Positions 2,420 to 18,628 of a stretch of DNA of 18,628 nucleotides are shown here, piece by piece. The stretch is from a virus (Duplodnaviria; Heunggongvirae; Uroviricota; Caudoviricetes), in the IMG/VR virus record IMGVR_UViG_2731957842_000007, positions 1 through 18,628 of that record. The stretch is one strand, 5' to 3'. The position numbers and the translations under genes are program-made. Position 1 is the stretch's first letter. Each line of letters starts with the position of its first letter. Under the pieces are notes generated by a model. The model made no database searches and was not told the origin of the DNA. It saw nothing but the letters and a program-made list of their open reading frames with translations.

Positions 2420-4414
2420 TTATTCAGCCTTAGCAAAAGTGGTCATAGTTGTTCCACTGAAAGTGAATGACCTGTCTGTAAGAGTAACATCCTGAATAGC
2501 AAAGTAATCGCCAACACCAGCGCCATTTACATAAAACTCGAATATCTCAGATGTATTTTCCGGAATAATATTATTAGCAATATAACACGTAGATAAAGAA
2601 CCATTTGTTGATGGTAAAGTTCCAAATAGCGTTGCATCCGATGCAGCATATATCGAACTGCTTAAATAAATATTTATATCAACATTACTCTCATAAGTAA
2701 CAATTAAGTACACCCGGTCGTTAACCTTCCACCCTCTGTCTTTTATCTTAGTATTAAGTGATAGCTTGTTAGAACTAGGGGTCGTTACGGTATTAATGGT
2801 TATTTTTGCTCCTATTGAGTTGTATCTGCTTCTGGTTACTGTATTACCAGTATTGTTCATTGTATAAAGGATTGCTCTGCTTTCTGCAAACGTCCTCATA
2901 TTAATCTTGCCTAAACAATCTCCTTCCATAACTTGTGGGCCAGACACAGTTGCACCAATATAACAATTAGTAAATACAGCATGAGCCCTGTTGTCAGTGC
3001 TTGATGCAAGTAATGAAAGTTTAAAGTTGCCCTGATCTGCAATCCAGCAACTATCAACCTTAACTACAGCATCATTGTCAAGAACAACAAACCTTCCTCC
3101 CTCATTGTAATATCCTACAAAAGCATTTACACCGCTTATTTTTACTACTCCATCTGGAACCGTAAAGATATCGCCTTGTATCGCTTCGCCATAGTACCCG
3201 CCAACAATATTGGTCACTCTGGTATTTAAGTACATGCCATGCCCAATGCCGAACTCAAGGTCACATCCAATTAAGCTTAAACCTTCAATAGGGGAAGTAC
3301 CAGAAGCATAAAAGGCATATTCACCGACCTTATTTGATGCAAATCCACAGTTATTGAACGTTACGCGGTTGTTAGCCCCAGCAAGGTGAACTCCGCGATT
3401 TGGCGCAGGAACAAAAGAACAGCAATCATAGGTATTAAGCCAGTCGTTTATAGTATAGAAGTTCGCCACCACGCCATTGATGAAACGACAATTATGGGTT
3501 CTTCCTAGGTGAACATATTGAATTCGGCAAGCATAGTTGGCGATGTTGTTCCCATCAACTGTAACGTGAGAGATAGATGTGCTACGTCTTATAGAGTCAG
3601 TTTCGTAGTACATGTTGACAACTGTCTCTCCAGTGAACCCACTCCCCGCAATAATGAATGACTTCTCAACGCCATCCCCGAATAGGTCAACAGTGCCTAT
3701 TGTTAAATCAACTGGTGACTTAACATAGTAAGTTCCTGCAGGGACAAACAGCCTCTTTCCTGCCGATAAAGCAACTGCTGCAGCAGCATTAAAGCTAGCT
3801 GAGTTATCTGCCGCTGGATCACCAGTAATGGGGAAAAATTGAGCAACAGAAATATAATCTGCTACCGTCACTTCGTACCATGGCAAAGCAGGAGATGACG
3901 GAAGAGTGCCACTACCACCGGTGTAGATTTTATTATTATACCACCACCAGTTATCAACATTAGATAACACCCCCTCCTGCCACACCCCCCCTAACGAGAA
4001 ATCAAGACCGTAAGAAGTAGCTATCTGACTTAATGATAATGTTGCTCCTCTGTCAGAAGCTAATTCTTGCCTTAATTGGTCAGGGTCATACTTCAGCACA
4101 TTAGGAAAATAGAACTGCTGTGCACCATACGCATCATAAACAGCCATAGAATGGCCTTGCACAGTTACGAACTTGGCAATCTGTCCGTTATATACCGGAT
4201 ATCCAGCAGCGTTAATGATGATTGGTTGCGAAACAGGAACGTGAGAGCCGTCTTCGTTCTCCACATAAACCTGAATCTGGTTTTCAGGATTTACAGGGTC
4301 AGTGTCAATTTTACCGATATAAATTTTGCCATTGGCTACGGCTTTAAAAGAACGAGCCATAGTGAAGAGTTGCGAAGGCATGCTTACCACAACATTTGCG
4401 GTGATATCTGACAT
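2420..4414 (-). CDS. Tailspike protein: P22-like N-terminal head-binding domain fused to a divergent C-terminal receptor-binding domain (probable glycan depolymerase)
   Basis: N-terminus [60 protein letters not shown] matches the conserved head-binding domain of P22 gp9-type tailspikes; the remainder has no P22 gp9 similarity I can see. Start placed at ATG 4414 (GGAG 9 nt upstream) rather than the ORF-track start at 4462. Confidence 0.85.
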
Positions 4415-4439
4415 TTCATTGCTCCAGACGAATGATATG

Positions 4440-4462
4440 ATGCAACCATGATGTGGTTGCAT
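4440..4462. promoter_or_regulatory. Palindromic operator-like site ATGCAACCA-TGATG-TGGTTGCAT in the tailspike/mnt divergent intergenic region
   Basis: 9 bp inverted-repeat arms around a 5 bp spacer; overlaps a TTGCAT -35-like hexamer (4457-4462) oriented towards mnt. Fits a ribbon-helix-helix repressor operator. Confidence 0.45.
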
Positions 4463-4535
4463 ACCGAAATGGTACTATTGAGTATTTATCCAGTAGGTTA
4501 CGATGCCATTCCACCCAACTGGTGAGGCATCAAGG

Positions 4536-4802
4536 ATGTACAGCAAATACGACGAGGCGCAGTTTCACTTGAGACTTCCGCATGAACTCCACGCGAAAAT
4601 TAAACAGCGCGCGAAGATGAATAACAGGTCGCTGAACTCAGAGATAATTGCAGCGATTGAAGAATCATTGGCTAAACAAAGCTCTGCATCCGTTTACATT
4701 GACGATGCAGAGCGTATGGCAGAACAACAATCTGATATGGTTAAGAAAATGGTTTTTGAAACGCTTAAGACCATGTATAGCAATAATAAAAAGGAAACAT
4801 AG
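4536..4802 (+). CDS. mnt: Mnt-like ribbon-helix-helix (Arc/MetJ family) repressor, 88 aa
   Basis: FHLRLPHELHAKIKQRAKMNNRSLNSEIIAAIEESL is a ribbon-helix-helix N-terminal fold; C-terminal DAERMAEQQSDMVKKMVFETLK resembles the P22 Mnt C-terminus as I recall it. ATG at 4536 with GGTGAGG 8 nt upstream; ORF-track start 4503 rejected. Confidence 0.7.
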   Translation: MYSKYDEAQFHLRLPHELHAKIKQRAKMNNRSLNSEIIAAIEESLAKQSSASVYIDDAERMAEQQSDMVKKMVFETLKTMYSNNKKET

Positions 4803-4872
4803 AAATCTAGTTTCCGGCTAAAATGGCATTGCCTTCATGATATCCTGTGAAAAACTAAGGAGAGTTAACCAT

Positions 4873-5358
4873 ATGAAAAAATCACTGTTAATTATCCCGC
4901 TTCTGCTGGTTGGATGCGCAAAAGTAAGTGACTATCAAGCAAGTTGCGAACAACGCTATCAAAAGCTTAGCGATATGGCTAATTGCCTTGATGCCAGAGT
5001 GAAGAACGACTCACGCATGGCATCAGCACCAACACCTAAGCTATATGTCCTTGCTGCAAAGATGCTCGGGCAAGGTGTCGATGAAGGCAAGATAAGTGAC
5101 GCACAGGCAAGACTTGAGCTTCAGAATCTTTATGTTCAATTACAAAGCCAAGAACAAGCCCAACAAATAGCACAAAGCCAAGCATTCCAGCAGGCTTTAT
5201 TGAATTATCAGGCTGTAAACACAATGCAAGCGATCGAGCAAAAAGCGAGACAGCCTGTTATAACTCAACCCTATCCAACACGAGTTGACACTTACACAAA
5301 CTGCAATTCAGGATTTGGAAACACCGTCACATGCAACAGTAGCAGCAACATTAGATAA
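4873..5358 (+). CDS. Predicted lipoprotein with Gln-rich C-terminal region, 161 aa; candidate superinfection-exclusion or moron protein
   Basis: MKKSLLIIPLLLVGC has a signal peptide and lipobox (LVGC); strong RBS AAGGAG 10 nt upstream of ATG 4873; occupies the position where P22-like phages carry sieA/immI genes. Confidence 0.7.
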   Translation: MKKSLLIIPLLLVGCAKVSDYQASCEQRYQKLSDMANCLDARVKNDSRMASAPTPKLYVLAAKMLGQGVDEGKISDAQARLELQNLYVQLQSQEQAQQIAQSQAFQQALLNYQAVNTMQAIEQKARQPVITQPYPTRVDTYTNCNSGFGNTVTCNSSSNIR

Positions 5359-5360
5359 AG

Positions 5361-7475
5361 CTATTCATATTCATTCATACCGCTTAACGAGGCGACAATA
5401 CCAGCTCTCGACAAGCGATTGAATTCATCGCTACCAATAGCATCGCGTATTGCTTTTACGGCGGCTTTATTTGCCATAAATCGGCGTTCCGCCGCCGCTA
5501 ATGCTTCTTTACTTCCGCCAGCTCTTACTGCTTTCGTGGCTTCCTGAACTGCTTTCTCTATCGCATATCGGCCGCTACGAGTGGTGGCAATTTTAGATAC
5601 AGCACCTTTTAACCCGGCGCCAACTAAAGCACCTGCGGCAGCGCCTGCAATGCCACCTCCTGCTCCACCAACAATGGCACCTGATGTTGAGTTGGCAATT
5701 GCATTTAACACTGTTGATGTGATGTTGGATAAACCGGCATCCAGATCGCGTAGTACATTGGCAGTTCTCCCTGTTCTTTCAATATACTGCTGAGGTTTCA
5801 CTGCTGCTCTTGCAAGAGTGCCATATACATCAGCAATTCTTCCGAGTTCTGAGGAATATCTGCTAATGGCTTTTACATTTTGTGGGGTAAGTATCCCTGC
5901 GATATGGTTAATTCCTGCTGCATCAGCTTTGCCACCACGTACACCATGCGAGATAGCATCTTGCAACATTGATGATATAGCAGGAACACGCTCTGATTCT
6001 GGCAGCGCGCGGATCATAGAATGGAATCCAGCAGGACCATTAAGACCTTTAGCTGACGATGCTTGAAGAGATTTTACTCCATTCGTAATCAGTGCATCTG
6101 TTGCCAAATCACGCCCAAAAACAGACTCTGCACTCTCTTGTGCGGACAGCCTCGCTTTAGACAGATCATTAGCTTTTTGCCAGTCATCAAAAAATCCGCC
6201 GTTTTCCGCCATTGTGCGCATATCATCAGTAATTGCCCGACGTATTTCCCCTGCTCTCCTTGCCGCATTTGCCTCTCCGCTACGCTTATATTTTTGCTCC
6301 GCATCAGCAAATTTCGCTCTCCATGCTTTCATGCCATCAAATGTTACTCCACCTTGATTGTTTGCCTGAACAAACTGTTTCATTTCAGGAGTAAGCGGTA
6401 TGCCAGCAGATCGCTCTGCCTGAATAACGGCATTACCATTTAGCATTCTTGCTTTTTGATTTGGCATTGTTGACCGCACGTCATCCCATGCCGCGCGCTC
6501 GGCATCCTTCATCTGATCAAGATTTTGAAGAATCCTTTGTTTTATAGCCGCACTTTTTTCTGATGCCGTTCCAGATGCGGCCCCAAATTCATCAAGGTTT
6601 CGACTTAACTTTGATGATATTTCGTTAAATGCTGCCTGATGGGCGTCCTGAACAATTCCTGGTGTTGATGCCAATGCGCCTTCGGCTTGTGCAATTCCAC
6701 GACTTCCAGATCGCATTCCTGGTGTTAATGCGTTTATATCAATTCCAGCAGACTCAGCCGCTTTTGCTACATCTTCGGACACATTAGCGGCCTGACTGGC
6801 AATTGACTGACGCCCAGCACCTGACTTTGCCATCCTGGAAACATCATTAGCAGAATTCAGTGCTGCACCACCAAGAGCCTGTGAAACCCTTGGCGCAATA
6901 ACGCGCCCGACACCTGAAAGAACGCCTTGAGCACCAATATTGATACCACCGTTAATGGCAGCATTTTGTGCAAAATCACCCTCCTGATTTGCAGCATCAG
7001 CAAGAGAACCTGCAATCATGTTTCCTGCGGAACCGATATCTCCAGCGAGCTTTGCTGGCGCTCCAGCAGCTTTTGCCGCTGTGCCAATTGGCAGGAGATA
7101 CCCACCAATTGTTTCACCGGCTTGCGCATAAGGGTCTGTCGGTCGATCGACTGGACGATAGACATCATCCAAAACCTTGGGGCCACCAAGCCCCTGGCTG
7201 ATTGCATTAATCAGACTTGCGCCACCCTGCAATACGTCAAATGGTATGTTTACCAGACCACGGCCAGCCTGTTCTGCAATTTGCCCTGCGCTTTGACCAC
7301 CAGTGAGCCAGTCAGTGGCTTTTCCTACCAGAGATTGTTCTTCTGGCTGCGATTGGTTTTGAGTGGATTGATCACCAGAAGACAGCATCTGAGCAATGCG
7401 ACGTGCTCCCTCAGTATCGCCGGCAGCATCAGCATTCCTTAACGCCGTCATCAACTGTTCGCGACTATAGGCCAT
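5361..7475 (-). CDS. DNA ejection/transfer protein, P22 gp16-like, 704 aa
   Basis: Third gene of a 7-20-16-like ejection operon on the minus strand; Gly/Ala-rich; start overlaps the stop of the upstream gene. Confidence 0.65.
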
Positions 7476-8749
7476 TACTGCCCTCCGAGATATTTATTAA
7501 TCAGGTCATCATCAGAAAGCTGCTGTTGAGACGGTTGTATGTCCTTCCCGTATTTCTGTTGCATACGTTTCTGAGCCATCTCAGTGGTTTTTATGATTGT
7601 TTTGATGGCTGCTCTGGCTGATTTTTCAGACTGATTTGGGGACAAACTACCAATAGCATCCATTACCTTTTGCCCCTCGGCATTACTTAAAGCCCCCATC
7701 CCTTTCATCTGCTGAATGCCAGATAAGAATCCCTGAGATTTCAGTGTGTCAACCAGAGTTTCTGTATCAGCAGCCTCTGTTCCTGGAATGAATCTACTCG
7801 ATAGTGGGTTTAGGTTTGTTCCGAAATATCCAGTGAATCCCGGGCTATTAAGAACTTTTGTAGCCGTCTCTATCGTTCTGGAAAGATTATCCATTCCAGA
7901 GTTGTACGCATCAGCCTTATCTCGCTTTGCCTGCTCCATAGCTTGCTGATTCTGCAATCTCTTGTCCTGCAATTCAGCAAGTTTTAAGGCATTAGTTTCA
8001 TTTGCGATGAGTCTGTCGTATTTCTTGTCCTCTAATTCCATCCGACGAAGATTGACATTTTGTTGCGCAATATTGTTGCTTGCCCACCCTCTGGCATTTG
8101 TCATGTCATTATTACGGATTGTTTCGTTAATTTTTTGCTGATCCTGCTGGCGACCAACCATCTTATCCTGAACAGCAAACGCCTTTTCTGGTCCAAGCGC
8201 ACCGAGAGACATAGTAGTCAGCATGTGTGATAGCTGCTCTGGATTCTGGATACCTGTCTGAATCATCCAGTCAGCATTAGCACCAACGCGATTTAACCTG
8301 TCCTTGTTGTCAGTAATGAATTTGCTGTAGGCTTCCGGTCCCTGAGAAAGAGCGACGTTAGCCCTCATGGCTAAATCGCCCATATCGTTGCGTTGCTGAT
8401 CATTAAGACCGGAAAACGCCTGTTGTGCCTGTGCAACAAACGCTGGATTTTCCTGGGCAAACTTAAATAGTCCCGATGGATCACCAGAAGCCCATGCATC
8501 AGCATGAACCTTATTGAACGCATTAATCGCTTCCTGTTGCTGTTCCTGCTTATAAATATCAGCAACTCCAGCCAGACCACGTAACGCGGTCAGACCAACG
8601 TTATTTGCACCTGAGCGAGCCAGTTCATTGTTTTCGCGGATCAGACCAAGCGTTGCGTTAATGTCGCTTGCCTTTGGCGCATTCTCATTTTGCGTACCGA
8701 TGCCAGCCAGAAAACCACCAGAATTAATACCCTGTTGCCACGTAGCCAT
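7475..8749 (-). CDS. DNA ejection/transfer protein, P22 gp20-like, 424 aa
   Basis: Position between gp7-like and gp16-like genes; Gln-rich low-complexity segments typical of ejection proteins; GGGG RBS upstream of ATG at 8749. Confidence 0.65.
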
Positions 8750-8759
8750 TGATTACCCC

Positions 8760-9452
8760 TTAAAACAACGAGCCAAGCAGACCAAGACCGCCTCCGATCG
8801 CAGCCCCCCACGGAGTTGATGAACCAATTAATTTCGCAAGTCCGGCCCCAGCAATAGCACCAGACGCACCTCCGCCAATAGCAGATTGCATTGCTGATGG
8901 TCTGTTGGCATTTGCCGCTGCAAGAGCCGCACTTTGCTGCGAAATCTGACTCATGTTGTTGGCATATGTCTGCCCGGCGTTTGCCTGACCTTGCAGTGCG
9001 CCAAGACCAATGTTTGCCAGATTCTGGTAGTTGTTCATCTGACCAGACAGCCACTGCTGACCAAGCGTTGGTGCGATTGTTGCTAACTGATTACCGGTTG
9101 CAGTGGAACCCAATCCACCTGTTGCTTCCGCTGCCGCCAGACTCTGATAGCGAGCCTGACCAGCAAGATCTTTGTACTGCTGAGAGTTGTAATACTGGTT
9201 TAGCGCCTGACCTTGCCCATCCAGAGACGATAAGTTCTCGAGGCTGCCGACATACTTCTCAGCCAGAGGAGTAAACGGTTTCAGGTTGTTCATGATGGTG
9301 TTGAACTGCTGATTTTGCAGGTCTGCGGCATACTTCTGAGCTTCTGCTGCATACTTTGCGCTTTTATCAGAACTGCCACCTTTCCCGCCTTTTTCAGGGC
9401 AATAAGGTTCCTCGCCGCGCAGTTTTCTGCCCAGCTTAAATGCATATAACAT
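8760..9452 (-). CDS. DNA ejection protein, P22 gp7-like, 230 aa
   Basis: MLYAFKLGRKLRGEEPYCPEKGGKGGSSDKSAKYAAEAQKYAADLQNQQFNTIMNNLKPF closely matches the P22 gp7 N-terminus as I recall it; length matches gp7 (229 aa). Confidence 0.8.
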   Translation of the reverse strand: MLYAFKLGRKLRGEEPYCPEKGGKGGSSDKSAKYAAEAQKYAADLQNQQFNTIMNNLKPFTPLAEKYVGSLENLSSLDGQGQALNQYYNSQQYKDLAGQARYQSLAAAEATGGLGSTATGNQLATIAPTLGQQWLSGQMNNYQNLANIGLGALQGQANAGQTYANNMSQISQQSAALAAANANRPSAMQSAIGGGASGAIAGAGLAKLIGSSTPWGAAIGGGLGLLGSLF

Positions 9453-9913: not shown

Positions 9914-10758
9914 TGCTCCGCGATTATCTTGATGGTTGTGGCAGTAAACGCCGCACCATTCGACTGAATGGTTAACGTGCTGCCATTTGTGGCAAGAAAG
10001 CCGTCTTTATCCACGCTGAAGAACGTAGCTAACAAGATGTTATCGGTTGTTGTCGCCGAGTTGCGACTGCTTACCAGTGTGTCAGGAACAGAGCCGGAAA
10101 AGGTTAGCTGCATTGACCTGTTTGCGGTTCCGCTGGGCCACGTCCCGACAATCGACAGCTTGAAGAACAGGGTTTTGTTCTCGTTGAACACAACCATCTT
10201 GTTGTTAACGGTGTCGAAGAATGGTGCCAACGAGCCGGATGACGGCGTGAGCGTTTTCAGCAGGCTAACAAGGTTGGTCGGCGCTGTCGGGATGGTTACT
10301 GATACGCCAGAGTAAACAACCTCTGACTTCTTGCGTGTGGTTGCATACTCCAGAGCATCAATGCGCGTTTCATGGTCTGAAACCTGCGACTCCAGCGACT
10401 GAAGTCTGGTATCAAGCGACGCAATATCGCTTTCATTCTGAGTGATTCGTGTTTCATGTTCCTGAAGAGTTGATTCTGCCTGACTGATTCGCTCCTCATG
10501 ATTAACAAGCGTTGCTTCCGCAGCAGAAATTCGCTGCTCATGGTCAGCGAGAATCACATCCTGCTCATCGTTCCTGACTTGTGCGTCATAAGCGCCCTGT
10601 CCGGCCTCGTTGGCCTTGTTAGCCACGTTACCAACATCAGTGCCCTGTGCGATAACGTAAAGCAGATACGACTGCGAGAAGATATTGCGTGGAAGGACTG
10701 ATGTGTCGAGCCGTGTAGCCTGAATGATTACCGGCACATTGAGATTCGAATCCGCCAT
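9910..10758 (-). CDS. Tail needle protein, P22 gp26-like, with a divergent C-terminal knob domain, 282 aa
   Basis: N-terminus [43 protein letters not shown] matches the conserved gp26 N-terminal domain; central heptad-like repeats ([43 protein letters not shown]) fit the trimeric coiled-coil needle; C-terminal 120 aa differ from P22. Confidence 0.8.
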
Positions 10759-11552
10759 TACTCAATCCTTATCTGAGCGCCAGACAGAGTGACAGGTGAC
10801 TTCGTGATAACGCGCAATTTGAAACCAATGTTTTTCCTGATGCGCCCTACTTTCTTCCACAAAACGCGTTTGTCGTAAACGAACGGTTCATTCTGCTCAA
10901 TCATCTGCTCACGCCCGTAATTGATGCCGTCAGTGGTTGCAGAGAGGAACAGGCGGTCGGCGTACTGAGCTACGCCAGTGGATGATTCCACCTCCAGATC
11001 GAAGCATCTGGCGTTATCCGCTTTGAACAGTGGAGTAAACAGCAGGTGTTCCTGTTGCTTGTCGTACTGGCTGCTGATATCGAACTGCAATTTCCCGGTC
11101 ACGGACTCCAGCTTATCGCCGCACGTTATCTGATTGCCTTCATAAATGAAGTCGATAGCGCGGTACACATCGTCATACAGGCCTGTTTTCAACACACACC
11201 ATTGCGGACCATTGGCGCTTGAAGATGCGTCGTACACGAGGACGTGGCGCGGAAGGTGGATAATCAGCAGTTCATGCGCATCAAATCGCAGCGATTCCAT
11301 CACACCATCAGCCAGTTCATCAGCAGTGTAGGAGCGAAGAATTTTCTCAATGCTCGCGCTGGCGATTGGTGATACCTGACCTGATCCGATGATGTATACA
11401 GACGGCGCACCCGTTGCCGGATTGCTGATAAACGCATACGAATCAGCGAATGGCGTTTTGCAGTAAGTTCCGGCAATGCCTTTCTGCACCATCAGCGATG
11501 GTTGTGCGACATACAAAGCGGCACCATCGGAGGTCAACATGACAGTAGTCAT
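10758..11552 (-). pseudogene. 5'-truncated gp10-like tail accessory gene (C-terminal 264 codons only), at the deletion junction
   Basis: Occupies the gp10 position upstream of gp26; P22 gp10 is about 470 aa but this ORF is 264 aa. The codon immediately upstream of its ATG (11553-11555 on the minus strand) is TAA, and its first codons are antisense to the start of the N-like gene. Confidence 0.6.
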
Positions 11553-11838
11553 TACATATCTGGCTGACGATAACGCCAGAAATCGCCGCAGAGCACGCAG
11601 ACAGGCTCAACGTGAACAGGCAATGCAAGAGCAGCGACTGGCGCGAAAAATTGCGCTAAAGCTCTCTGGTTGCGTCAGAGCAGATAAAGCAGCATCACTC
11701 GGAAGCCTTCGCTGCAAGAAGGCAGAAGAAGTCGAGCGTAAACAGAATCGTATTTACTACCGCAAGCCACGCAGTGAAATGGGTGTGACTTGCTCAGGCC
11801 GCCAGAAAATGAAATTAGGCAGCAAACCACTTATTTGA
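11539..11838 (+). CDS. N-like transcription antiterminator with an arginine-rich motif, 99 aa
   Basis: MTVVITYLADDNARNRRRARRQAQREQ resembles the N-terminal arginine-rich RNA-binding motifs of lambda N and P22 gp24 (which begins MTVITY). GGAGG 5 nt upstream of ATG 11539; first gene of the rightward operon. ORF-track start 11476 rejected. Confidence 0.55.
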   Translation: MTVVITYLADDNARNRRRARRQAQREQAMQEQRLARKIALKLSGCVRADKAASLGSLRCKKAEEVERKQNRIYYRKPRSEMGVTCSGRQKMKLGSKPLI

Positions 11839-11846
11839 GGTGAGAT

Positions 11847-12317
11847 ATGACAAAATCATGGAGCGTACCTTTTCCTGAATCAGAAACTGAACATGATGGA
11901 ATGCCTGTTTTCTGGAGATTCCAGGCGACAGTTGAAGAAGATGGGATAAAAATATTCGCACTTCAATATATAGCTTTTCATCAGACAGAGCATTATGCAT
12001 GGTTGGTTCCTGCGCATTGGATTGTTAATTTTAAACCAGCACCAAATCAGTGGTTACAGGAATGGAAACAAAGGAGAAATAGATATGCAATTAAGAAAGT
12101 AGCAAAAAATGCAGAAAGATCTTTTGCATTCCCAACGAAGAAACTTGCCATTGAGAGTTTATTGCGCCGGAAGAAATACCATTTAATGAGAATCAAACAA
12201 GATTTGGCTGTTGTATCAACTCTTGTTGATGGGATGAAGAATATTGATACATCAACACCAGATATTGAATATAACTTTGGACACAACCAAGAAACAGAAA
12301 ATTGGGTATTCTACTAG
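11847..12317 (+). CDS. Hypothetical protein, 156 aa, in a visibly A+T-rich segment; moron candidate
   Basis: RBS GAGGTGAG before ATG 11847; Trp- and Lys-rich soluble protein with no family I recognise; followed immediately by a terminator. Confidence 0.6.
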   Translation: MTKSWSVPFPESETEHDGMPVFWRFQATVEEDGIKIFALQYIAFHQTEHYAWLVPAHWIVNFKPAPNQWLQEWKQRRNRYAIKKVAKNAERSFAFPTKKLAIESLLRRKKYHLMRIKQDLAVVSTLVDGMKNIDTSTPDIEYNFGHNQETENWVFY

Positions 12318-12341
12318 GCCGCATAGTCGGCCTTTATTTTT
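12317..12341 (+). terminator. Rho-independent terminator after the 156 aa ORF
   Basis: Stem GGCCG (12317-12321), loop CATAGT, stem CGGCC (12328-12332), followed by TTTATTTTT. Confidence 0.6.
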
Positions 12342-12363
12342 GGCATAAACAACAGAGGCTAAC

Positions 12364-12660
12364 ATGGAATTTAAAGGTACTGAAGGTAAGTGGGAAATAA
12401 TGATGGATGGCGATGAGATTAAAATCATCCAGGCAGACTCACTTGAAAATGGCGCAGGCTGGCGTTCGTATATTGCAATCTGTGAGGAAGTTCAATGTAT
12501 TGAAGATGCCAATCTAATAGCGGCAGCACCTGACCTTCTCGAAGCACTTCAGTTATTACTTAAGCAATCCAAAAATAGAACAACGACAACATATCCAGAA
12601 TGGTATGGAGCTGTTAATAAAGGTCTTGCAGCAATCAGCAAGGCTCTGGGAGGTGAATGA
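12364..12660 (+). CDS. Hypothetical protein, 98 aa
   Basis: ORF with an AGAGG RBS-like element upstream; its stop overlaps the start of the next ORF (ATGA), indicating translational coupling. Confidence 0.5.
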   Translation: MEFKGTEGKWEIMMDGDEIKIIQADSLENGAGWRSYIAICEEVQCIEDANLIAAAPDLLEALQLLLKQSKNRTTTTYPEWYGAVNKGLAAISKALGGE

Positions 12661-12869
12661 TGTGCGAGTTTTATGAAGCAGATATCAAACGCCCAGAAAT
12701 GGCAAGTGATGCGACATTACGTGATTACTTCGCTGCTAAGGCTATGGCAGCAATAGTGCGCAGATGGGACGGACATTCCTTTGGCGGTGGACAGAATTCA
12801 CCACAGTACAAAGAATTAGCAGATGATGCCTACTTTATTGCTGATGCCATGCTCAAAGCTCGCGAATAA
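12657..12869 (+). CDS. Hypothetical protein, 70 aa, translationally coupled to the upstream 98 aa ORF
   Basis: ATGA start/stop overlap at 12657-12660; no recognisable family. Confidence 0.45.
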   Translation: MMCEFYEADIKRPEMASDATLRDYFAAKAMAAIVRRWDGHSFGGGQNSPQYKELADDAYFIADAMLKARE

Positions 12870-12964
12870 GCACTGTGTATTCATTCCAACGAGTGAATAC
12901 ACGGAGCAATGTCGCTCGTAACTAAACAGGAGCCGACTTGTTCTGATTATTGGAAATCTTCTTT

Positions 12965-12992
12965 GCCCTCCAGTGTGAGGGCAATTTTTTTT
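12965..12992 (+). terminator. Rho-independent terminator upstream of the coiled-coil gene
   Basis: Stem GCCCTC (12965-12970), loop CAGTGT, stem GAGGGC (12977-12982), followed by AATTTTTTTTT. Confidence 0.55.
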
Positions 12993-13004
12993 GATGGAGG
13001 ATAT

Positions 13005-13973
13005 ATGAGTGAAGTAACAGATTTAGTTGTTATTGAAAAAGCAAATGCAATGACTGTATTTCAGTCTGCCGACCAGATTGAAGAAATCCTTCAAAAGGTA
13101 GAACGTGAAGTTATGTCCTTTGTGCCTGATATCACAACGGCAAAGGGCAGAAAGGAGGTCGCTTCTCTGGCGTATAAAGTTGCGCAGACGAAAACATATC
13201 TCGATGGTCTTGGCAAAGACCTTGTTGCTGAACTGAAGGAAATTCCAAAGCTAATTGATGCCAACCGCAAGACAGTGCGCGATCGCCTTGATGAACTGAA
13301 AGCCAAGGCACGCCAGCCTCTTACTGATTATGAAGAGGAACAGGCGCGGATTAAAGCTGAAGAAGAAGCTAAGGCAGCAGCTGAAGCTCTCGCAAAGCAA
13401 ATTGAGTCTGACCATGAAATAGCGATTTTGATGGATCGCGAATTTGACCGCCAAAGAGAAGAGGCAAGACTCAAAGCGGAGCAGGAAAAGCGAGAGCATG
13501 AAGAACGCTTAAAAAGAGAAGCTGAAGAGAAAGCCAGAGCTGAAGCCGAAGCAAAGGCAAAAGCCGAAATTGAAGCAGCAGCAAGGCGAGAAGCAGAAGC
13601 TAAGGCCGCAGCGGAACGTGCAGAGCGTGAACGCATTGAAGCCGAGCAACGAGCACAGCGCGAAGCAAAAGAGGCAGCAGAACGAGCTGAAAGAGAAAAG
13701 CAGGCAGCAATTGAAGCAGAACGCAGAAAAGCACAGGAGGAGGCTGAACGAATCCGTCGCGAGGTTGAAGCAAAAGAGCAAGCCAGAATAGCAGAAGAAA
13801 AAAGAATCAAGGAAGAAGAAGAGCGTAGAGCAAAGGATAAAGCTCACCGGAAAGAAGTAAATAACAAAATACTTGCTGACCTTATCAAGGTTGGTGCATC
13901 AGAAGATGTTGCTAAAAATATCATAACAGCCATCGTAAAAGGCGAAGTATTCGCAACAAAAATAACCTACTAA
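13005..13973 (+). CDS. Hypothetical coiled-coil protein with a long Glu/Ala/Lys/Arg-rich repetitive central region, 322 aa
   Basis: ATG 13005 preceded by GGAGG; the ORF-track start 12909 lies upstream of the terminator and is rejected. Central 200 aa are AEAKA/EAERR-type repeats; globular N- and C-terminal segments. Confidence 0.6.
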   Translation: MSEVTDLVVIEKANAMTVFQSADQIEEILQKVEREVMSFVPDITTAKGRKEVASLAYKVAQTKTYLDGLGKDLVAELKEIPKLIDANRKTVRDRLDELKAKARQPLTDYEEEQARIKAEEEAKAAAEALAKQIESDHEIAILMDREFDRQREEARLKAEQEKREHEERLKREAEEKARAEAEAKAKAEIEAAARREAEAKAAAERAERERIEAEQRAQREAKEAAERAEREKQAAIEAERRKAQEEAERIRREVEAKEQARIAEEKRIKEEEERRAKDKAHRKEVNNKILADLIKVGASEDVAKNIITAIVKGEVFATKITY

Positions 13974-13997
13974 TAAAACCAACATAAGGAACCACCC

Positions 13998-14129
13998 ATG
14001 ATTTACGCAATCGCGGGAGGAGCTCGCATGGGTGCCTTCCAACTAAATGAATCTTTACTTGAACGAATCACCCGTAAATTACGTGACGGATGGAAAAGAG
14101 TTGAGGTCTTATTATGCGCAATGAAATAG
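13998..14129 (+). CDS. cIII-like small protein (FtsH protease inhibitor family), 43 aa
   Basis: MIYAIAGG...ESLLERITRKLRDGWKR matches the conserved core of lambda CIII as I recall it; AAGGA RBS upstream; located upstream of erf as in lambdoid PL operons. Confidence 0.5.
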   Translation: MIYAIAGGARMGAFQLNESLLERITRKLRDGWKRVEVLLCAMK

Positions 14130-14266
14130 CCATCAATCACCAGATGCTTCGTGCTGCACAGAACAAAGCAGTAATAGCCAGATTTATTGGTGATTCAAAA
14201 ATGTGGCTTGAAGCAAATAAAGCGATGAAATCAGCTATCAACCTTCCGTGGTATCGCAGGAAATGA
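14114..14266 (+). CDS. Kil-like small protein (putative), 50 aa
   Basis: IARFIGDSKMWLEANKAMK resembles the lambda Kil family from memory; start overlaps the cIII-like ORF, and its stop overlaps the next start. Confidence 0.35.
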   Translation: MRNEIAINHQMLRAAQNKAVIARFIGDSKMWLEANKAMKSAINLPWYRRK

Positions 14267-14421
14267 GTTTCACAGATAACTGGTCAGACGAAGAATTCAT
14301 TCGTCAGATGAAAGAATTAATCGGTAACGAAGGAGATATTCATGTCACTTGCAACCACAGTGAAGGAGAGCAAGTTACAGAGACGCATGTACACGCAGAA
14401 AGCTCTCTGGTATCGCCATAA
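14263..14421 (+). CDS. Hypothetical small protein, 52 aa
   Basis: Chained by ATGA overlap to the upstream small ORF and lying directly upstream of erf; no family recognised. Confidence 0.3.
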   Translation: MSFTDNWSDEEFIRQMKELIGNEGDIHVTCNHSEGEQVTETHVHAESSLVSP

Positions 14422-14522
14422 TGGTGACCGCGAAGGAATGCGGGTATGCCTTAATTTGTCCCGAGTCGAAGTATTAAATCAGCGTTATTTCCTTGGGCCG
14501 TGTCCATTCTGAGAACAATCAT

Positions 14523-15128
14523 ATGAGCAAAGAATTTTACGCAAGACTGGCAGCTATTCAGGAGAATCTGAACGCGCCAAAGAATCAGTACAACTCATTC
14601 GGCAAATATAAATACAGAAGCTGCGAAGATATTCTTGAAGGCGTTAAGCCGTTACTGAATGGTCTGTTTTTATCAATCAGCGATGAAGTTGTGTTGATTG
14701 GTGATCGGTATTACGTGAAAGCCACGGCAACTATTACCGATGGCGAAAACAGTCATACGGCAACTGCTCTTGCACGAGAGGAAGAAAGCAAGAAAGGAAT
14801 GGATTCTGCACAAGTTACTGGAGCTACAAGCTCTTATGCGCGCAAGTATTGCCTCAATGGTTTGTTCGGCATTGATGATGCGAAAGATGCAGATACCGAC
14901 GAACATAAACATCAGCAGAACGCAGCAGCAAAGCAATCAAAACCATCACCTACACCTGAACAGGTTCTAAAAGCATTCACTGACGCAGCAATGCAAAAAA
15001 ACACCGTGGAAGAGCTTAAACAGGCGTTCGCCAAAGCGTGGAAGATGCTCGAAGGAACACCGGAGCAGCACAAAGCGCAGGACGTTTACAACATCAGACG
15101 AGACGAATTAGAAGGAGCTGCTGCTTAA
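14523..15128 (+). CDS. erf: Erf-family single-strand annealing recombinase, 201 aa
   Basis: MSKEFYARLAAIQENLNAPKNQYNSFGKYKYRSCEDILEGVKPLLNGLFLSISDEVVLIGDRYYVKATATITDGENSHTA matches P22 Erf as I recall it. ORF-track TTG start at 14493 rejected in favour of ATG 14523. Confidence 0.85.
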   Translation: MSKEFYARLAAIQENLNAPKNQYNSFGKYKYRSCEDILEGVKPLLNGLFLSISDEVVLIGDRYYVKATATITDGENSHTATALAREEESKKGMDSAQVTGATSSYARKYCLNGLFGIDDAKDADTDEHKHQQNAAAKQSKPSPTPEQVLKAFTDAAMQKNTVEELKQAFAKAWKMLEGTPEQHKAQDVYNIRRDELEGAAA

Positions 15129-15511
15129 TGGCACATTCGATTACTGTAAGACTAAACAAGCCCGCAAGAGAGTTTCAGGCCGGGGAAAATATCGGATTCA
15201 ACATCCGTGCTGGCGTTCAGTATTACGATCGCCAGACAAAAAAGAAAGAATGGACAAACTACAGCGCCGTTGTATTTGCCAAGCCGGGAGCGCAAGCGGA
15301 TTACTACCGTAGTGTTCTTGTTGAAGGTGGCATTGTGGAAATTACCGGAGAAAACATCAGGGTTGATGTTTATCAGGGGCAAAATGGTCAATCAATCACT
15401 CTTGAATTACTGAATGCAAAGATTGGATTTGCAACTTCAGGAAACAGCCAACAGCAGCAAAGTAGCAATCATCAAAATCATCCTGAATACGACGATTCAA
15501 TCCCCTTCTAG
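15128..15511 (+). CDS. SSB-like single-stranded DNA-binding protein with an acidic C-terminal ...DDSIPF tail, 127 aa
   Basis: ATG overlaps the erf stop (TAATG); the C-terminus EYDDSIPF matches the conserved SSB tail motif (DDDIPF); the N-terminal region is compatible with an OB fold. ORF-track start 15038 rejected. Confidence 0.6.
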   Translation: MAHSITVRLNKPAREFQAGENIGFNIRAGVQYYDRQTKKKEWTNYSAVVFAKPGAQADYYRSVLVEGGIVEITGENIRVDVYQGQNGQSITLELLNAKIGFATSGNSQQQQSSNHQNHPEYDDSIPF

Positions 15512-15534
15512 ATTAGCAAAATAAGGATTCCATT

Positions 15535-15828
15535 ATGCCAGCGCCTCTGTATGGTGCGGATGACCCGCGCCGCTGTTCCGGCAATTCCGTATCGGAGGTG
15601 CTGGATAAATTCAGGAAAAACTACGACCTGATAATGTCTCTACCGCAGGAAACGAAAGAGGAAAAGGAATTTCGCCATTGTATATGGCTTGCAGAGAAAG
15701 AAGAACGCGAGCGAATTTACCAGACATCAATCCGCCCATTCCGCAAAGCCACATATACCCACTTCCCTGAAATTGACCCGCGCCTGCGTAATTACCGCTC
15801 ACGCTATGGCGCTATCAGTAATGACTGA
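15535..15828 (+). CDS. Hypothetical protein, 97 aa
   Basis: ORF with an AAGGA RBS-like element upstream of ATG 15535; no family recognised. Confidence 0.45.
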
Positions 15829-15838
15829 GGAATTTACC

Positions 15839-16003
15839 ATGAGAGGACTTGCATACAATCCCGGCATTCTTCCGGCAGAAATGATTATTCGCCAACGCGT
15901 AAAGCCAATGCCATCGAGAGAGGAATTGCTTAAGAGAAATTCTTTTCCATCAGTGAATCAAAACAAATATCTGAATGCGATGTTGCGGAGTGGGAAGAAA
16001 TGA
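15839..16003 (+). CDS. Hypothetical small protein, 54 aa (alternative start at 15821)
   Basis: GAGG 8 nt upstream of ATG 15839; its stop overlaps the next start (ATGA at 16000-16003). The 5' part of the ORF-track ORF 15689..16003 overlaps the upstream gene and is rejected. Confidence 0.3.
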
Positions 16004-16476
16004 AACAAATGTCACTAATTGAGATGGATGGATTCCTGAAAGGTAAATGCATCCCCCGAGATTTAAAGGTTAACGAAACAAACGCTGAATATCTGGTGCG
16101 TAAATTTGCTGAAGCGGAGGCCAAGTGCGCGGAGATGGCAGCGGAAAATGCGGGGCTGAAGTCTGGCGCTATGGACGAAATCAAGGTTATCAACCGTGGA
16201 GGGCAGGCATATTGCGTAAAAGATGGAGTGCAAGTTAATCCCATATATGCAAGAGGGTGGAATGATTATCGCGCAAAGTCTATGCAATCAGACACCCCAG
16301 CCACCGATGCTTTCCTGGCTGAAGTCAGGGCTAAGGCGTTTGATGACCTTTGCGCGGCGTTCGTTAAGCACGCGTCGGTGTCCGGGCTGGACGATGGCGA
16401 CTGCGTTACGGTGAAAGAGGCGACTGACGCCCTGCTGCATTGTGCGGAACAGCTTCACAAGGGAGTGCATTCATGA
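16000..16476 (+). CDS. Hypothetical protein, 158 aa
   Basis: Translationally coupled on both sides (ATGA overlaps at 16000 and 16473); no family recognised. Confidence 0.5.
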
Positions 16477-16706
16477 GCAACCTACTACCATGTCCATTCT
16501 GTGGCGGTGCAGCGCACGTTGCCAGCGAAGCAGATCACCCTGAATATGGCTCTGGCGGTCGATTCTATTTCGTTCGATGCGGTACGTGTCGCGCTCAATC
16601 TGGTAGCAAATATGCAGCGCCTGGAAATGACTGCGCGATTTTTTATTCAGAGGTTAGAGCAGAGTGGAATCAACGAGCAAAGGAGGCGAACAGTGAGCAA
16701 GATTGA
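16473..16706 (+). CDS. Lar-family restriction alleviation-like protein, 77 aa
   Basis: [12 protein letters not shown]...CGTC contains the CPFCG-type Cys motif characteristic of Lar-family small proteins; ATG overlaps the upstream stop. ORF-track start 16440 rejected. Confidence 0.5.
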   Translation: MSNLLPCPFCGGAAHVASEADHPEYGSGGRFYFVRCGTCRAQSGSKYAAPGNDCAIFYSEVRAEWNQRAKEANSEQD

Positions 16707-17268
16707 CTATCAGGCACTGCGTGAGGCGGCGCAGAACGCGAAAGATTTAGGTGGGATTAAGAATTACAAGCGAGGCGAGCAAGCTGTTGCCGAATTTGAG
16801 TCCCTGATAACGCCACACATTGTGCTGGCACTGCTGGATGAACGGGAAAGAAACCAGCAATACATCAAACGCCGCGACCAGGAGAACGAGGATATTGCGC
16901 TAACGGTGGGGAAACTGCGTGTTGAGCTGGAAGCCGCAGAGAAGCGCAACGCAAAATTACAAAGCGAGAATGCATACATCCGCAACCGGTACAAAGAACT
17001 GGACCTGTTAATCGGGAAAAACATTCTGGTCATGCAGGCTGCGATTATCGAATGGCAGGCAACTGGCGACGCTAAGAGCGGACTGGCATGGATTTATAAC
17101 ACACTGTTTGGCCCTGGCGAATTGCCGGACGAATCTGAGAAAGATGCTCAGGCCTACTTTAATCGCAAATATGCACCGATTGACGAAAAGCTTATGGAGC
17201 TTCACAAGTGGTTTTGGGAACAAAGTGAAGCCGAGCGCGCCGCCGGCATTCGCATCAAAGGAGAGTGA
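16693..17268 (+). CDS. Hypothetical coiled-coil protein (possibly Ead/Ea22-like), 191 aa, GTG start
   Basis: AGGAGG 6 nt upstream of GTG 16693; the ORF-track start at 16501 would overlap the Lar-like gene for 200 bp and is rejected. Confidence 0.5.
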   Translation: MSKIDYQALREAAQNAKDLGGIKNYKRGEQAVAEFESLITPHIVLALLDERERNQQYIKRRDQENEDIALTVGKLRVELEAAEKRNAKLQSENAYIRNRYKELDLLIGKNILVMQAAIIEWQATGDAKSGLAWIYNTLFGPGELPDESEKDAQAYFNRKYAPIDEKLMELHKWFWEQSEAERAAGIRIKGE

Positions 17269-17269
17269 T

Positions 17270-17920
17270 ATGAGCACTATCACTAAAGAACGTATCGAAT
17301 TGTTCATTAAATCCCCGCTTGAAAACGGACTTACTCGTGGCGAACAAATGGAACTGGCACGAATTGCACTGGCATCACTGGAACGCGAACTGATTCGCCA
17401 CGAGCATGCCAAATGGTCTGACTCCACATTTGGCTGCGTTGGCCCTATTGGTCCGCTGAAACATCTCTCAAAAGAGGCACTGGAAGCCGCAGCCGAACCA
17501 GACGATCTTAGCGAGTGGGCTGATATGCAGTTTCTGTTGTGGGATGCACAGCGCCGTGCTGGCATCAGCGATGCTGAAATTACCGCTGCTATGGAAGATA
17601 AATTGAAGATCAACATGGAGCGCCAGTGGCCTGAGCCAAAAGATGGTGAGCCTCGCTTGCACATTAAAGAACCCGGCAACTATCCGGTAACTCCGGATGG
17701 TTGGATAAGCTGTAGTGAGCGAATGCCTGAAAAGAATCGGAACGTGCTTATTTCGGTGAATTTCGATAGCTCTCTGGTTGAACCGCTAATATGCTCCGCA
17801 CGCTATACCGGAAGCACCTTTCGGCGCGGAGATGCAACGATTAAGCCGGGTAATGGTATTGAGCAAGCAACTCACTGGATGCCGCTACCGGAACCGCCGC
17901 AGGAGGTAAACCGTGGCTAA
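17270..17920 (+). CDS. DUF551-like phage protein, 216 aa
   Basis: AAAGGAGAG RBS, ATG 2 nt after the upstream stop; C-terminus ...PDGWISCSERMPE...THWMPLPEPP resembles the DUF551 signature. ORF-track start 17108 rejected. Confidence 0.55.
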   Translation: MSTITKERIELFIKSPLENGLTRGEQMELARIALASLERELIRHEHAKWSDSTFGCVGPIGPLKHLSKEALEAAAEPDDLSEWADMQFLLWDAQRRAGISDAEITAAMEDKLKINMERQWPEPKDGEPRLHIKEPGNYPVTPDGWISCSERMPEKNRNVLISVNFDSSLVEPLICSARYTGSTFRRGDATIKPGNGIEQATHWMPLPEPPQEVNRG

Positions 17921-17982
17921 CCTGCAACTTGCCGTCAAAGGTGAATAACAATCCTCGCACTCGCGGGGATTTCTTTTATCTG

Positions 17983-18007
17983 AACTCGCTACGGCGAGTT
18001 TTGTTTT
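17983..18007 (+). terminator. Rho-independent terminator
   Basis: Stem AACTCGC (17983-17989), loop TACG, stem GCGAGTT (17994-18000), followed by TTGTTTT. Confidence 0.55.
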
Positions 18008-18019
18008 ATGGAGATGATT

Positions 18020-18319
18020 ATGGCCTGTTCAACATTCAACCCTCTAACGTTACAGAAATACCAGACAGACCCTGAAGATTTATGCTCACTGTGTGGCGGA
18101 AATCATGGCAAAGCCGCCATGATCGAATGTAAGGACAAAATCCACATATGCCTTAATTGCGTTGATGTCCTCGTTGATATCAAAAATGAAAGAGAAGATA
18201 AAAAGCGTAGCGAGGCTATTCGCGCCTTAGATTCATGGATGCGAGATGGGTATAGTGCTGCGCAAATTTATGACTTCGCAATATCAAAAGGCGAAATACC
18301 AGGAGTGCGCATCGAATAA
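18020..18319 (+). CDS. Hypothetical Cys-rich (CxxC...CxxC, putative zinc-binding) small protein, 99 aa
   Basis: GGAG 6 nt upstream of ATG 18020 (alternative in-frame ATGs at 18008 and 18014); motifs CSLCGG and CLNC. Confidence 0.45.
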   Translation: MACSTFNPLTLQKYQTDPEDLCSLCGGNHGKAAMIECKDKIHICLNCVDVLVDIKNEREDKKRSEAIRALDSWMRDGYSAAQIYDFAISKGEIPGVRIE

Positions 18320-18361
18320 GACGTAACCAATATTCGAATTGAAGAACTGAAAGAACACCAA

Positions 18362-18383
18362 GCCGCCTGATGGCGGTTTTTTA
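18362..18383 (+). terminator. Rho-independent terminator upstream of the excisionase gene
   Basis: Stem GCCGCC (18362-18367), loop TGAT, stem GGCGGT (18372-18377), followed by TTTTTTATT. Confidence 0.6.
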
Positions 18384-18392
18384 TTGCCTGAT

Positions 18393-18408
18393 TTGCAGGT
18401 TCGATTCC
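18393..18408 (+). repeat. 16 bp exact copy of the argW T-arm segment (TTGCAGGTTCGATTCC; identical to 1054-1069)
   Basis: Exact 16/16 direct repeat of tRNA positions 1054-1069; the flanks diverge and the T-stem cannot form, so it is a fragment, not a tRNA. Confidence 0.5.
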
Positions 18409-18427
18409 CTATTCGGAGATAGCACTC

Positions 18428-18628
18428 ATGCAACACGAACTACAGCCTGATTCACTGGTTGATTTGAAATTCATCATGGCCGATACTGGCTTCGGTAAAA
18501 CCTTCATCTATGACCGGATTAAGTCCGGCGACCTGCCAAAAGCCAAAGTTATCCACGGGCGAGCAAGATGGTTATATCGTGACCATTGTGAATTCAAAAA
18601 TAAGCTCTTAAGCCGCGCCAATGGGTAA
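18428..18628 (+). CDS. torI: Excisionase / TorI-like recombination directionality factor, 66 aa
   Basis: 66 aa ORF MQHELQPDSLVDLKFIMADTGFGKTFIYDRIKSGDLPKAKVIHGRARW..., recognised as the KplE1 TorI/Xis family; last gene of the rightward operon, at the prophage end opposite int. Confidence 0.75.
   Translation: MQHELQPDSLVDLKFIMADTGFGKTFIYDRIKSGDLPKAKVIHGRARWLYRDHCEFKNKLLSRANG

Follow-up and report, generated by a model that had tools for sequence, protein, structure and literature searches.

A predicted lipoprotein gene in the sieA slot of a P22-like prophage remnant of Escherichia coli is a candidate phage-exclusion gene

The stretch of DNA analysed here (IMG/VR record IMGVR_UViG_2731957842_000007, 18,628 nucleotides (nt); hereafter the window) is a segment of an Escherichia coli chromosome carrying a P22-like (Lederbergvirus-type) prophage integrated at argW. 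Our subject is a gene on its plus strand (4873-5358) that encodes a predicted lipoprotein of 161 amino acids (aa), including the signal peptide, and is a member of phrog_6067. The gene lies between the tailspike/immI region and a minus-strand gene for a gp16-type DNA-transfer (ejection) protein (5361-7475; 704 aa; phrog_770, E 7e-217), with which it is convergent. This is the slot and the orientation of sieA in P22 and in prophage HS1 of E. coli HS, and in this respect the layouts of both bear out the preliminary description of the locus, which had placed the gene at the sieA position of P22-like phages. Based on the comparisons given below, the product may be regarded as a non-homologous prophage accessory envelope protein in the sieA slot, and as a good candidate for a phage-exclusion protein.

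The longest open reading frame (ORF) at this position spans 4837-5358 and would yield 173 aa; the real start of the gene is the ATG at 4873, which gives 161 aa. A Shine-Dalgarno sequence (AAGGAGAG, 4857-4864) is found 5' of this codon, MKK is the N-terminus in all homologues, and DNA homology with other prophages begins only at 4856-4866 according to blastn (4856 for Gally/LF82, 4866 for O104:H4). The protein matches phrog_6067, a family of unknown function, over its full length (residues 1-161 to positions 1-161 of the 161-position profile, E 1e-109). Homologues form 94 clusters at 90% identity, spread over about a dozen genera; all named ones belong to the Enterobacterales (Escherichia, Citrobacter, Serratia, Klebsiella aerogenes, Cronobacter, Yersinia, Pectobacterium, Morganella, Providencia, Tatumella and Symbiopectobacterium), and homologues from Proteus and Salmonella are found among phage records. 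The window protein shares 99% identity with each of its two nearest clusters, and 871 member sequences make up the bigger one. Its relatives in RefSeq are named “hypothetical protein” or “lipoprotein” (WP_000749286; WP_000749287 of LF82, with 94% DNA identity; WP_000749290), and our literature searches found no paper on this protein. Already known are the family, under these two database names, and the variability of the region, which is well described.

Comparison of alleles by the Nei-Gojobori method gave dN/dS values between 0.04 and 0.08 for four of five E. coli-type pairs (dS 0.14-0.28), while the fifth pair, O104 and O26, showed 0.22 with few differing sites (dS 0.06). Between the window and the Serratia allele, synonymous sites are saturated (pS 0.87) and pN is 0.12. 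These values show a real gene under strong purifying selection. The last 26 codons (5278-5358) have a pattern of their own when compared to the O26 and O104:H4 alleles, with a pS of 0.54 and a pN of 0 (pS elsewhere in the gene 0.02-0.13), which points to a recombination breakpoint inside the 3' end of the gene that left the protein sequence unchanged. For many E. coli matches the end is at position 473 of the 486 in the gene.

The predicted signal peptide (MKKSLLIIPLLLVG; 4873-4917 when the lipobox cysteine codon is included) consists of a basic n-region, a hydrophobic h-region and a lipobox (MKK-SLLIIPLL-LVG-C15), and the codon of Cys15 is the TGC at 4915-4917. The sequence fits a PROSITE-style (PS51257-type) rule, applied here as [LVI][ASTVI][GAS]C within the first ~35 residues, and so do 32/32 sequences in the family alignment A1 and 67/78 in the wider alignment A5; the prediction of a 161-aa lipoprotein with the lipobox LVGC in the preliminary description therefore holds for the ORF starting at 4873. 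All sequences in A1 have Cys15. At +2 the window protein carries Ala and the family A, V or T, never Asp, and by the E. coli +2 rule we predict an outer-membrane lipoprotein that would be targeted by the Lol pathway. By inspection of the sequence, residues 5-14, ahead of Cys15, form the single hydrophobic stretch and the remainder is hydrophilic. Four further cysteines stand out: Cys25 and Cys38 do not vary, nor does Cys154 in A1, and Cys144 is almost as constant (Cys144 and Cys154 at least 90% conserved in alignments A3 and A5).

AlphaFold gave a predicted local distance difference test score (pLDDT) of 63 with an alignment of close homologues and of 88 with a 78-sequence alignment including distant members. 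The model shows a conserved helical head domain (residues 16-98, 4918-5166; pLDDT 93-98), which is common to a wider lipoprotein family of about 125-190 aa and in which short helices (18-28, 32-45, 47-51 and 53-70) bear the Cys25/Cys38 pair. A single helix of 51 residues (76-126, 5098-5250) and a C-terminal beta hairpin (140-158, 5290-5346; strands 140-146 and 152-158) are also modelled. In the hairpin, Cys144 and Cys154 are cross-strand partners and are predicted to form a disulfide; the disulfides of the lipoprotein would be periplasmic. The distal part of the long helix is rich in glutamine and corresponds to an insertion of ~30 aa seen in the P22-like subfamily (alignment A3); with 29% Gln in residues 85-135, the Gln-rich C-terminal half reported earlier is confirmed. 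No clear coiled-coil register emerged when the long helix was analysed for heptads, and we therefore claim no oligomer.

No family of Pfam, NCBIfam or PADLOC matched the protein; the only hit, to GspK, scored 18.7 bits against a cut-off of 130 and is treated here as compositional. A homologue from Cronobacter dublinensis (cluster P0023) carries the name “general secretion pathway protein GspK” at NCBI, which is probably a mis-annotation, since the GspK score of the window protein is far below the cut-off. The AlphaFold model had no structural relative in the PDB or BFVD, with the presence of Llp and Cor in the PDB copy used being unconfirmed.

At the 3' end of the gene, the stop codon (TAA, 5356-5358) and that of the reverse-strand gp16 gene (TAG, 5361-5363) are separated by a spacer of 2 nt (5359-5360), in agreement with the preliminary description. 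From this spacing it had been deduced that the two transcripts must overlap and that there is no room for a terminator. A terminator scan indeed revealed no terminator-like element at the joint; overlap is moot in the window, because the late promoter region appears to be lost from this prophage by deletion. RNA folding across the joint was no better than in shuffled sequences on either strand (z -1.6 and +0.4), and an Rfam search of 4000-6000 gave no match. The sole terminator-like hairpin nearby, on the plus strand at 5571-5588 (GCCGCTACGAGTGGTGGC followed by AATTTTAGAT), lies 210 nt past the lipoprotein stop, within and antisense to gp16, and is within chance expectation (1 found compared to 1.7 in shuffles). 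The lack of a terminator is to be expected: the region is internal to the late operon, and P22-type late transcription must cross it antisense before arriving at the tailspike gene. This gene forms the downstream end of the operon and is reachable only via transcription through the lipoprotein and mnt genes, and sieA of P22 is arranged likewise.

The weight that had been put on the 2-nt spacing was an over-reading, because the spacing varies among relatives from a 4-nt overlap (locus L026) to about 198 nt (Yersinia). Between these extremes are the window and FORC_041 with 2 nt, Morganella with 9 nt, O104:H4 and O26 with 14 nt, Serratia with 18 nt, Brookers with 22 nt and Gally/LF82 with 90 nt. 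Pairwise blastn showed that the DNA block shared with other prophages spans just 4856-4866 to 5357-5358, and many E. coli matches to the region end at 5357-5358. The gene is therefore, as judged from these alignments, a discrete mosaic cassette reaching from the Shine-Dalgarno sequence to the stop codon, and the 2-nt spacing is incidental, since the mosaic joint coincides with the stop codon. The lipoprotein gene adjoins gp16 proteins of at least six types, which measure between 614 and 922 aa and in some cases contain an SLT domain; it is not coupled to a particular ejection protein. The window gp16 is itself a mosaic allele: residues 48-202 show 68% identity to P22 gp16 and the other ~500 residues are without significant similarity to it. 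A DNA homologue of this 704-aa gp16 type, 68% identical, is present in a Serratia remnant. As a discrete insertion absent from many related phages, the lipoprotein gene has one of the hallmarks of a moron.

Two further loci deserve mention. In E. coli CFSAN064035 (L014, 3617-5143) the region is rearranged: a transglycosylase pseudogene overlaps the start of the lipoprotein gene, and 3' of the gene follow ~95 nt of a window-type gp16 3' end and an mnt fragment, then a 922-aa gp16 with an SLT domain. A degraded P22-like remnant in Serratia marcescens (L005, L006) retains only the tailspike gene, a Bro-N protein gene, an intact lipoprotein gene and, in L006, a truncated gp16 gene; unrelated genes (DNA polymerase A, SNF2, integrase) come next. 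After the window, this is the second case of the lipoprotein gene outliving its phage.

Next, we compared the locus with P22 and HS1. In P22, gene 16 ends at 13313 and the convergent sieA gene (13336-13830) is 22 nt apart from it, with its own promoter and with mnt upstream in the same direction. In HS1, a 212-aa gene converges with gp16 at a distance of 21 nt, and because of its expected position and the SieA motif we regard it as the sieA gene that Leavitt et al. class as type B (PMC10883804). The lipoprotein gene holds this slot in every relative examined, including phages Gally and Brookers, E. coli FORC_041, O104:H4, LF82, O26 and CFSAN064035, and likewise Serratia, Yersinia, Morganella and locus L026; taxonomically, the same location recurs in Escherichia, Salmonella phage VSe13, Proteus, Morganella, Yersinia and Serratia. 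In the slots of the 12 distinct phage and prophage contexts examined, no sieA was annotated or called. The region between gene 16 and gene 9 (the “ant moron”) has been reported as hypervariable, with ten types in sixteen genomes, and sieA was found in only 22/66 sequenced P22-like phages.

SieA blocks DNA injection by P22-like phages, and its gene is weakly transcribed in lysogens and up-regulated on induction. The types A, B and C of SieA (PMC10883804) share with the window protein the slot, the convergence with gene 16, the nature of an envelope protein, a similar size (162-212 aa compared to 161 aa), several of the same enterobacterial genera and a modest expression in the prophage, which for our protein is that of a homologue. 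However, SieA is a polytopic inner-membrane protein with 3-4 transmembrane helices, no signal peptide and a cytoplasmic FxRYPxEAxxFNK motif, whereas the window protein combines a cleavable lipoprotein signal with a soluble domain of helices and conserved pairs of cysteines, and its tether is predicted to be in the outer membrane. Exclusion activity has been demonstrated for SieA; for the window protein it is suggested by analogy.

A very divergent SieA would account for the shared slot, yet BLASTP against P22 SieA gave no alignment at E<=100, the FxRYPxEAxxFNK motif, present in the SieA proteins of P22 (FGRYPGEANGFNK) and HS1 (FNRYPGEARKFNK), is absent, and inspection reveals a single N-terminal hydrophobic stretch instead of 3-4 transmembrane helices. 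The ribbon-helix-helix gene upstream resembles an antitoxin-toxin layout, which would make the lipoprotein a toxin partner of Mnt; Morganella, Gally and Serratia, however, either lack mnt or have it apart from the lipoprotein gene, and the product is predicted to be secreted. A virion or lysis component would have to be encoded on the strand opposite the virion genes and be dispensable in P22, which lacks the gene. We consider this whole group of explanations hardly credible.

We counted the gene in 5426 complete E. coli genomes by megablast, the sensitivity of which makes all counts lower bounds. The lipoprotein gene was present in 186 genomes (190 places), compared to 844 genomes (880 places) for gp7, used as the marker of P22-like prophages, and 21 genomes (21 places) for HS1-type sieA. 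Thus, ~22% of the P22-like prophage places in E. coli hold the lipoprotein gene, which is about ninefold commoner than HS1-type sieA. Four genomes each have two places matching it. Carriers include O104:H4, O26:H11 and the adherent-invasive strain LF82, and among 50,697 phage records it was found in five (Gally, vB_EcoP-720R6, VSe13, MS2 LVA and Brookers). The preliminary description had named a conserved structural component of related intact phages as the finding that would speak against an exclusion or moron role; absence from P22 and about three quarters of E. coli P22-like prophages, together with the position on the strand opposite the virion genes, excludes such a component.

Expression data are available for a homologue. 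LF82_138 (GALLYPH_13) of prophage Gally, which has 94% DNA identity with the window gene, is covered by the RNA sequencing data of Misson et al. 2023 (PMC9928086, S1 Table). In overnight lysogeny broth (LB) cultures its normalised count was 70 (70.2), compared to a prophage median of 15.6 and 727 for the c2 repressor, which made it the second-highest Gally gene after c2, 4.5-fold over background (PMC9928086). Expressed as log2(fpkm+5), where fpkm denotes fragments per kilobase per million, LF82_138 reached 6.3/6.0 in LB and mnt 3.9/3.6, and gp16, gp20 and gp7 stayed at background (2.3-4.2) in all ten samples (PMC9928086). These data, which come from the homologue and not from the window, show transcription of LF82_138 from the prophage at a time when its late genes are silent. 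Transcription in the lysogen independent of the surrounding operon is another hallmark of a moron, and the LF82 homologue displays it. Misson et al. concluded that no moron is present in Gally, using a 5-fold cut-off (78.1) by which LF82_138 was excluded (PMC9928086).

Because mnt is expressed at a much lower level in LB, the Gally allele must have its own promoter. In Gally, the gene between the lipoprotein gene and mnt points the opposite way. This gene, GALLYPH_14 (LF82_139; L001, 4447-4866), lies on the late strand, encodes a 139-aa protein of unknown function and has no counterpart in the window; its expression is very strong in the non-macrophage samples at 1 h and 6 h and in the macrophage samples (log2 about 9.4-11; PMC9928086). 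In the window, the mnt stop and the lipoprotein ATG are 70 nt apart on the same strand with no terminator between them, and scans found no consensus sigma-70 site between the mnt stop and the ATG at 4873 and no flanking terminator after the lipoprotein stop. The upstream regions of the alleles are not conserved. As judged from the lack of both an own promoter and an intervening terminator, the window gene is likely co-transcribed with mnt.

The same data set bears on the possibility that the gene is a host-fitness or virulence moron, altering the envelope to the benefit of the lysogen (stress, intramacrophage survival, serum or antimicrobial-peptide resistance) with no direct effect on incoming phages. 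From about 6.1 in LB, the log2(fpkm+5) of LF82_138 rises to about 8 (7.9-8.2) in the non-macrophage samples at 1 h and 6 h and to 10.3/10.3 in macrophages at 1 h, followed by 8.7/8.5 at 6 h (PMC9928086), and in macrophages the gene is ~16-fold higher. The gene also occurs in the genomes of the pathogens O104:H4, O26:H11 and LF82, is intact in defective remnants unable to make phage, and has some distant relatives among ordinary chromosomal genes. However, macrophages induce the entire right end of Gally together, with mnt, the tailspike gene and two hypothetical genes among those that rise, so that the signal may be regional and not gene-specific. Where its main text discusses prophage genes, the in vivo CRISPR interference screen of LF82 highlights other Gally genes; the identifiers of this gene are absent from one supplementary file of that study, which is a weak negative. 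Moreover, the family is also found in plant, insect and environmental Enterobacterales, and a fitness role leaves the sieA-slot position beside ejection and receptor-binding genes unexplained. Overall, we regard a host-fitness moron as somewhat unlikely, albeit a serious contender.

A role as an accessory of the lytic cycle, shielding progeny from ejecting into debris or infected cells in the style of the lytic conversion by T5 Llp, or aiding envelope disruption, would be consistent with the nearness of the gene to the tailspike and ejection genes; llp adjoins the receptor-binding gene of T5. It is also in line with the up-regulation of sieA itself on induction. Conversely, the gene is antisense to the late operon, so that late transcription should interfere with rather than drive its expression, and the homologue is expressed in uninduced lysogens. 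The gene is outside the lysis cassette, encodes a protein far larger than an Rz1-type o-spanin and is absent from most P22-like phages. Taken together, such a role seems improbable.

We searched 1.84 billion representative proteins with a profile and obtained 244 at E <= 1e-3. The wider-family members inspected have about 125-190 aa (one has 231 aa), and most of them carry the lipobox, YQxxCE...C, the helix region KLYxLxA...GxxS[DE]x[DE]A[RK]xxLQxxY and a C-terminal TTxCxxxGxxxxC hairpin. A scan of genome contigs with a profile from a narrower alignment found just two loci. The genomic contexts of the wider family include an ordinary chromosomal one adjoining uvrC and EarP and one near phosphoenolpyruvate carboxylase in Desulfatitalea. 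Others are an element in Burkholderiales that combines a small terminase with a polyvalent ART/LPD38 protein and a restriction-modification gene of the MmeI type, an integrase-AlpA-primase (P4-like) element where the gene is beside a T5orf172 protein, and a position directly upstream of a TIR-domain protein and an nSTAND/WD40 protein; loci L022, L023 (metagenome), L017 and L018 represent the TIR plus nSTAND/WD40 and P4-like/T5orf172 contexts. The mobile or defence-island contexts are suggestive in a sample that is small and mixed.

That an N-terminal domain and a C-terminal cysteine hairpin are common to 244 representative clusters, some of them chromosomal and non-phage, would also fit a passenger, i.e. 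a bacterial envelope lipoprotein picked up from the host chromosome with no selected role in phage or lysogen. This explanation has to contend with the dN/dS of 0.04-0.08 in most close comparisons and with the conservation of the protein past synonymous saturation across genera. Furthermore, the slot is conserved in about a dozen genera, the cassette moves between prophages with different neighbours, and the P22-like subfamily has its own Gln-rich helix extension. We therefore consider a mere passenger very unlikely.

The remainder of the window shows what has become of the prophage. The left chromosomal flank carries yfdC (1-933), followed by the tRNA-Arg(CCU) gene argW (1009-1083) and the integrase gene intS (1209-2402). 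The tailspike gene (2420-4414, minus strand; Pfam Head_binding from ORF residue 17) has an ORF open to 4462, with homologues beginning at 4414, and the gene for the Mnt/Arc-family ribbon-helix-helix repressor (4503-4802, plus strand) matches Pfam Arc (1e-14) and Repressor_Mnt (4e-12), its RefSeq homologues beginning at an ATG equivalent to 4536; both genes are annotated in FORC_041. Between these two divergent genes we observed a perfect 9-bp inverted repeat (ATGCAACCA-N5-TGGTTGCAT, 4440-4462), a candidate operator of the Mnt-like repressor in a variant of the region without arc and ant. Beyond gp16, the minus strand carries homologues of gp20 (7475-8749) and gp7 (8760-9452), followed by genes for DUF2824, an Sf6-type needle and a truncated gp10; the gp10 ORF (10758-11552) matches just positions 212-469 of the 469-position Pfam model, with the first ~211 residues missing. 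From about 11525 onwards, early-left genes follow on the plus strand: a TolA-like gene, hypothetical genes, kil and cIII, as well as erf (14493-15128), abc2 (15535-15828) and, within about 11525-18628, an Ead/Ea22 gene and one for a dATP/dGTP pyrophosphohydrolase with DUF551.

The portion of the prophage seen in the window lacks head, terminase, lysis, Q/gp23, replication, cro and c2 genes. The prophage is an internal-deletion remnant, with a gene order as expected had the missing genes been deleted, and the junction of gp10 and the early-left genes (~11525) was spanned by 0/5426 complete E. coli genomes. Despite this deletion, the ORF of the lipoprotein is intact.

Small phage-encoded lipoproteins of the outer membrane provide a precedent for a function in phage exclusion. 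Llp of T5 and Cor of phi80, N15 and HK022 reside at the inner leaflet of the outer membrane, the location predicted for the window protein, and their genes are near receptor-binding genes; both block the FhuA receptor and thus offer a model for a periplasm-facing lipoprotein that excludes phages. They are about half the size of the window protein and have no detectable homology with it, and they act on the protein receptor of the phage that carries them, whereas the primary receptor of P22-like phages is the O-antigen. Furthermore, Llp is made early in lytic infection, whereas the window gene runs antisense to the late operon and transcripts of its homologue are found in the lysogen. As no match in homology or fold was found, nothing in these searches ties the lipoprotein to Llp or Cor.

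Lambda Bor is likewise a prophage-expressed outer-membrane lipoprotein (again, the location is predicted for the window protein) encoded in a discrete cassette. The two lack homology and differ in genomic position, with the bor gene adjoining the lysis genes of lambdoid phages; serum resistance is known as a phenotype of Bor. In the LF82 data set used above, Bor was noted as induced in macrophage culture medium (DMEM) (PMC9928086).

Considering all these results, we place first, as a tentative reading that is quite possible but short of probable, superinfection exclusion at the level of the envelope, with the lipoprotein as a non-homologous functional replacement for SieA. This ranking is based on the equivalence to the sieA slot, the fact that no sieA was seen in that slot in the contexts examined, the ejection and receptor-binding genes as neighbours, the expression in the lysogen and the retention in remnants. 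Two conserved cysteine pairs, strong purifying selection and the intact gene in the deletion remnants of the window and Serratia add to it, as do the mobile or defence-type surroundings of distant relatives and the higher count in E. coli compared to HS1-type sieA. In the proposed scheme, the product would be made in the lysogenic state from its own or the mnt promoter and not from the late operon, exported, lipid-modified at Cys15 and, owing to the +2 Ala, taken by the Lol pathway to the outer membrane, on whose periplasmic face it would display a disulfide-stabilised helical head, a helix estimated at about 75 A from its 51 residues and a disulfide-locked hairpin tip. Exclusion could then result from interference, on the outer-membrane or periplasmic side, with the use of the receptor or with the assembly of the DNA-delivery conduit formed by gp7, gp20 and gp16 of an incoming phage.

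Several points weigh against exclusion. The searches yielded no homology or fold match linking the lipoprotein to SieA, to the PADLOC defence models or to solved structures; the modelled fold gives no mechanistic clue. The strongest expression signal, that in macrophages, fits host fitness equally well. Should the two matching places in each of the four E. coli genomes belong to separate prophages, this would be unlike the exclusion of like phages. Since lipopolysaccharide alone has been reported to trigger DNA ejection by P22 and HK620 in vitro, a block of an outer-membrane protein receptor in the style of Llp is not an obvious route against P22-like phages. Finally, because two distant homologues sit among ordinary chromosomal genes, the ancestral role of the family may be physiological.

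A more far-reaching version, which we consider unlikely, would see in the protein a new class of outer-membrane-tethered periplasmic “probe” that blocks the trans-envelope DNA-ejection conduit of podophages from the outer-membrane side and complements SieA at the inner membrane; the wider lipoprotein family (244 representative clusters) would then have been recruited by mobile elements in several bacterial phyla for envelope-level defence.

To our knowledge, only the SieA and immI genes have been studied in the accessory region between gene 16 and gene 9 of P22-like phages. If the lipoprotein excludes phages, this would explain the self-protection of most P22-like lysogens lacking sieA, would add an outer-membrane or periplasmic route to the known one at the inner membrane, and would bear on the prediction of phage susceptibility in pathogenic E. 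coli. If it aids intracellular survival instead, the gene would represent an overlooked moron in a prophage reported to carry none.

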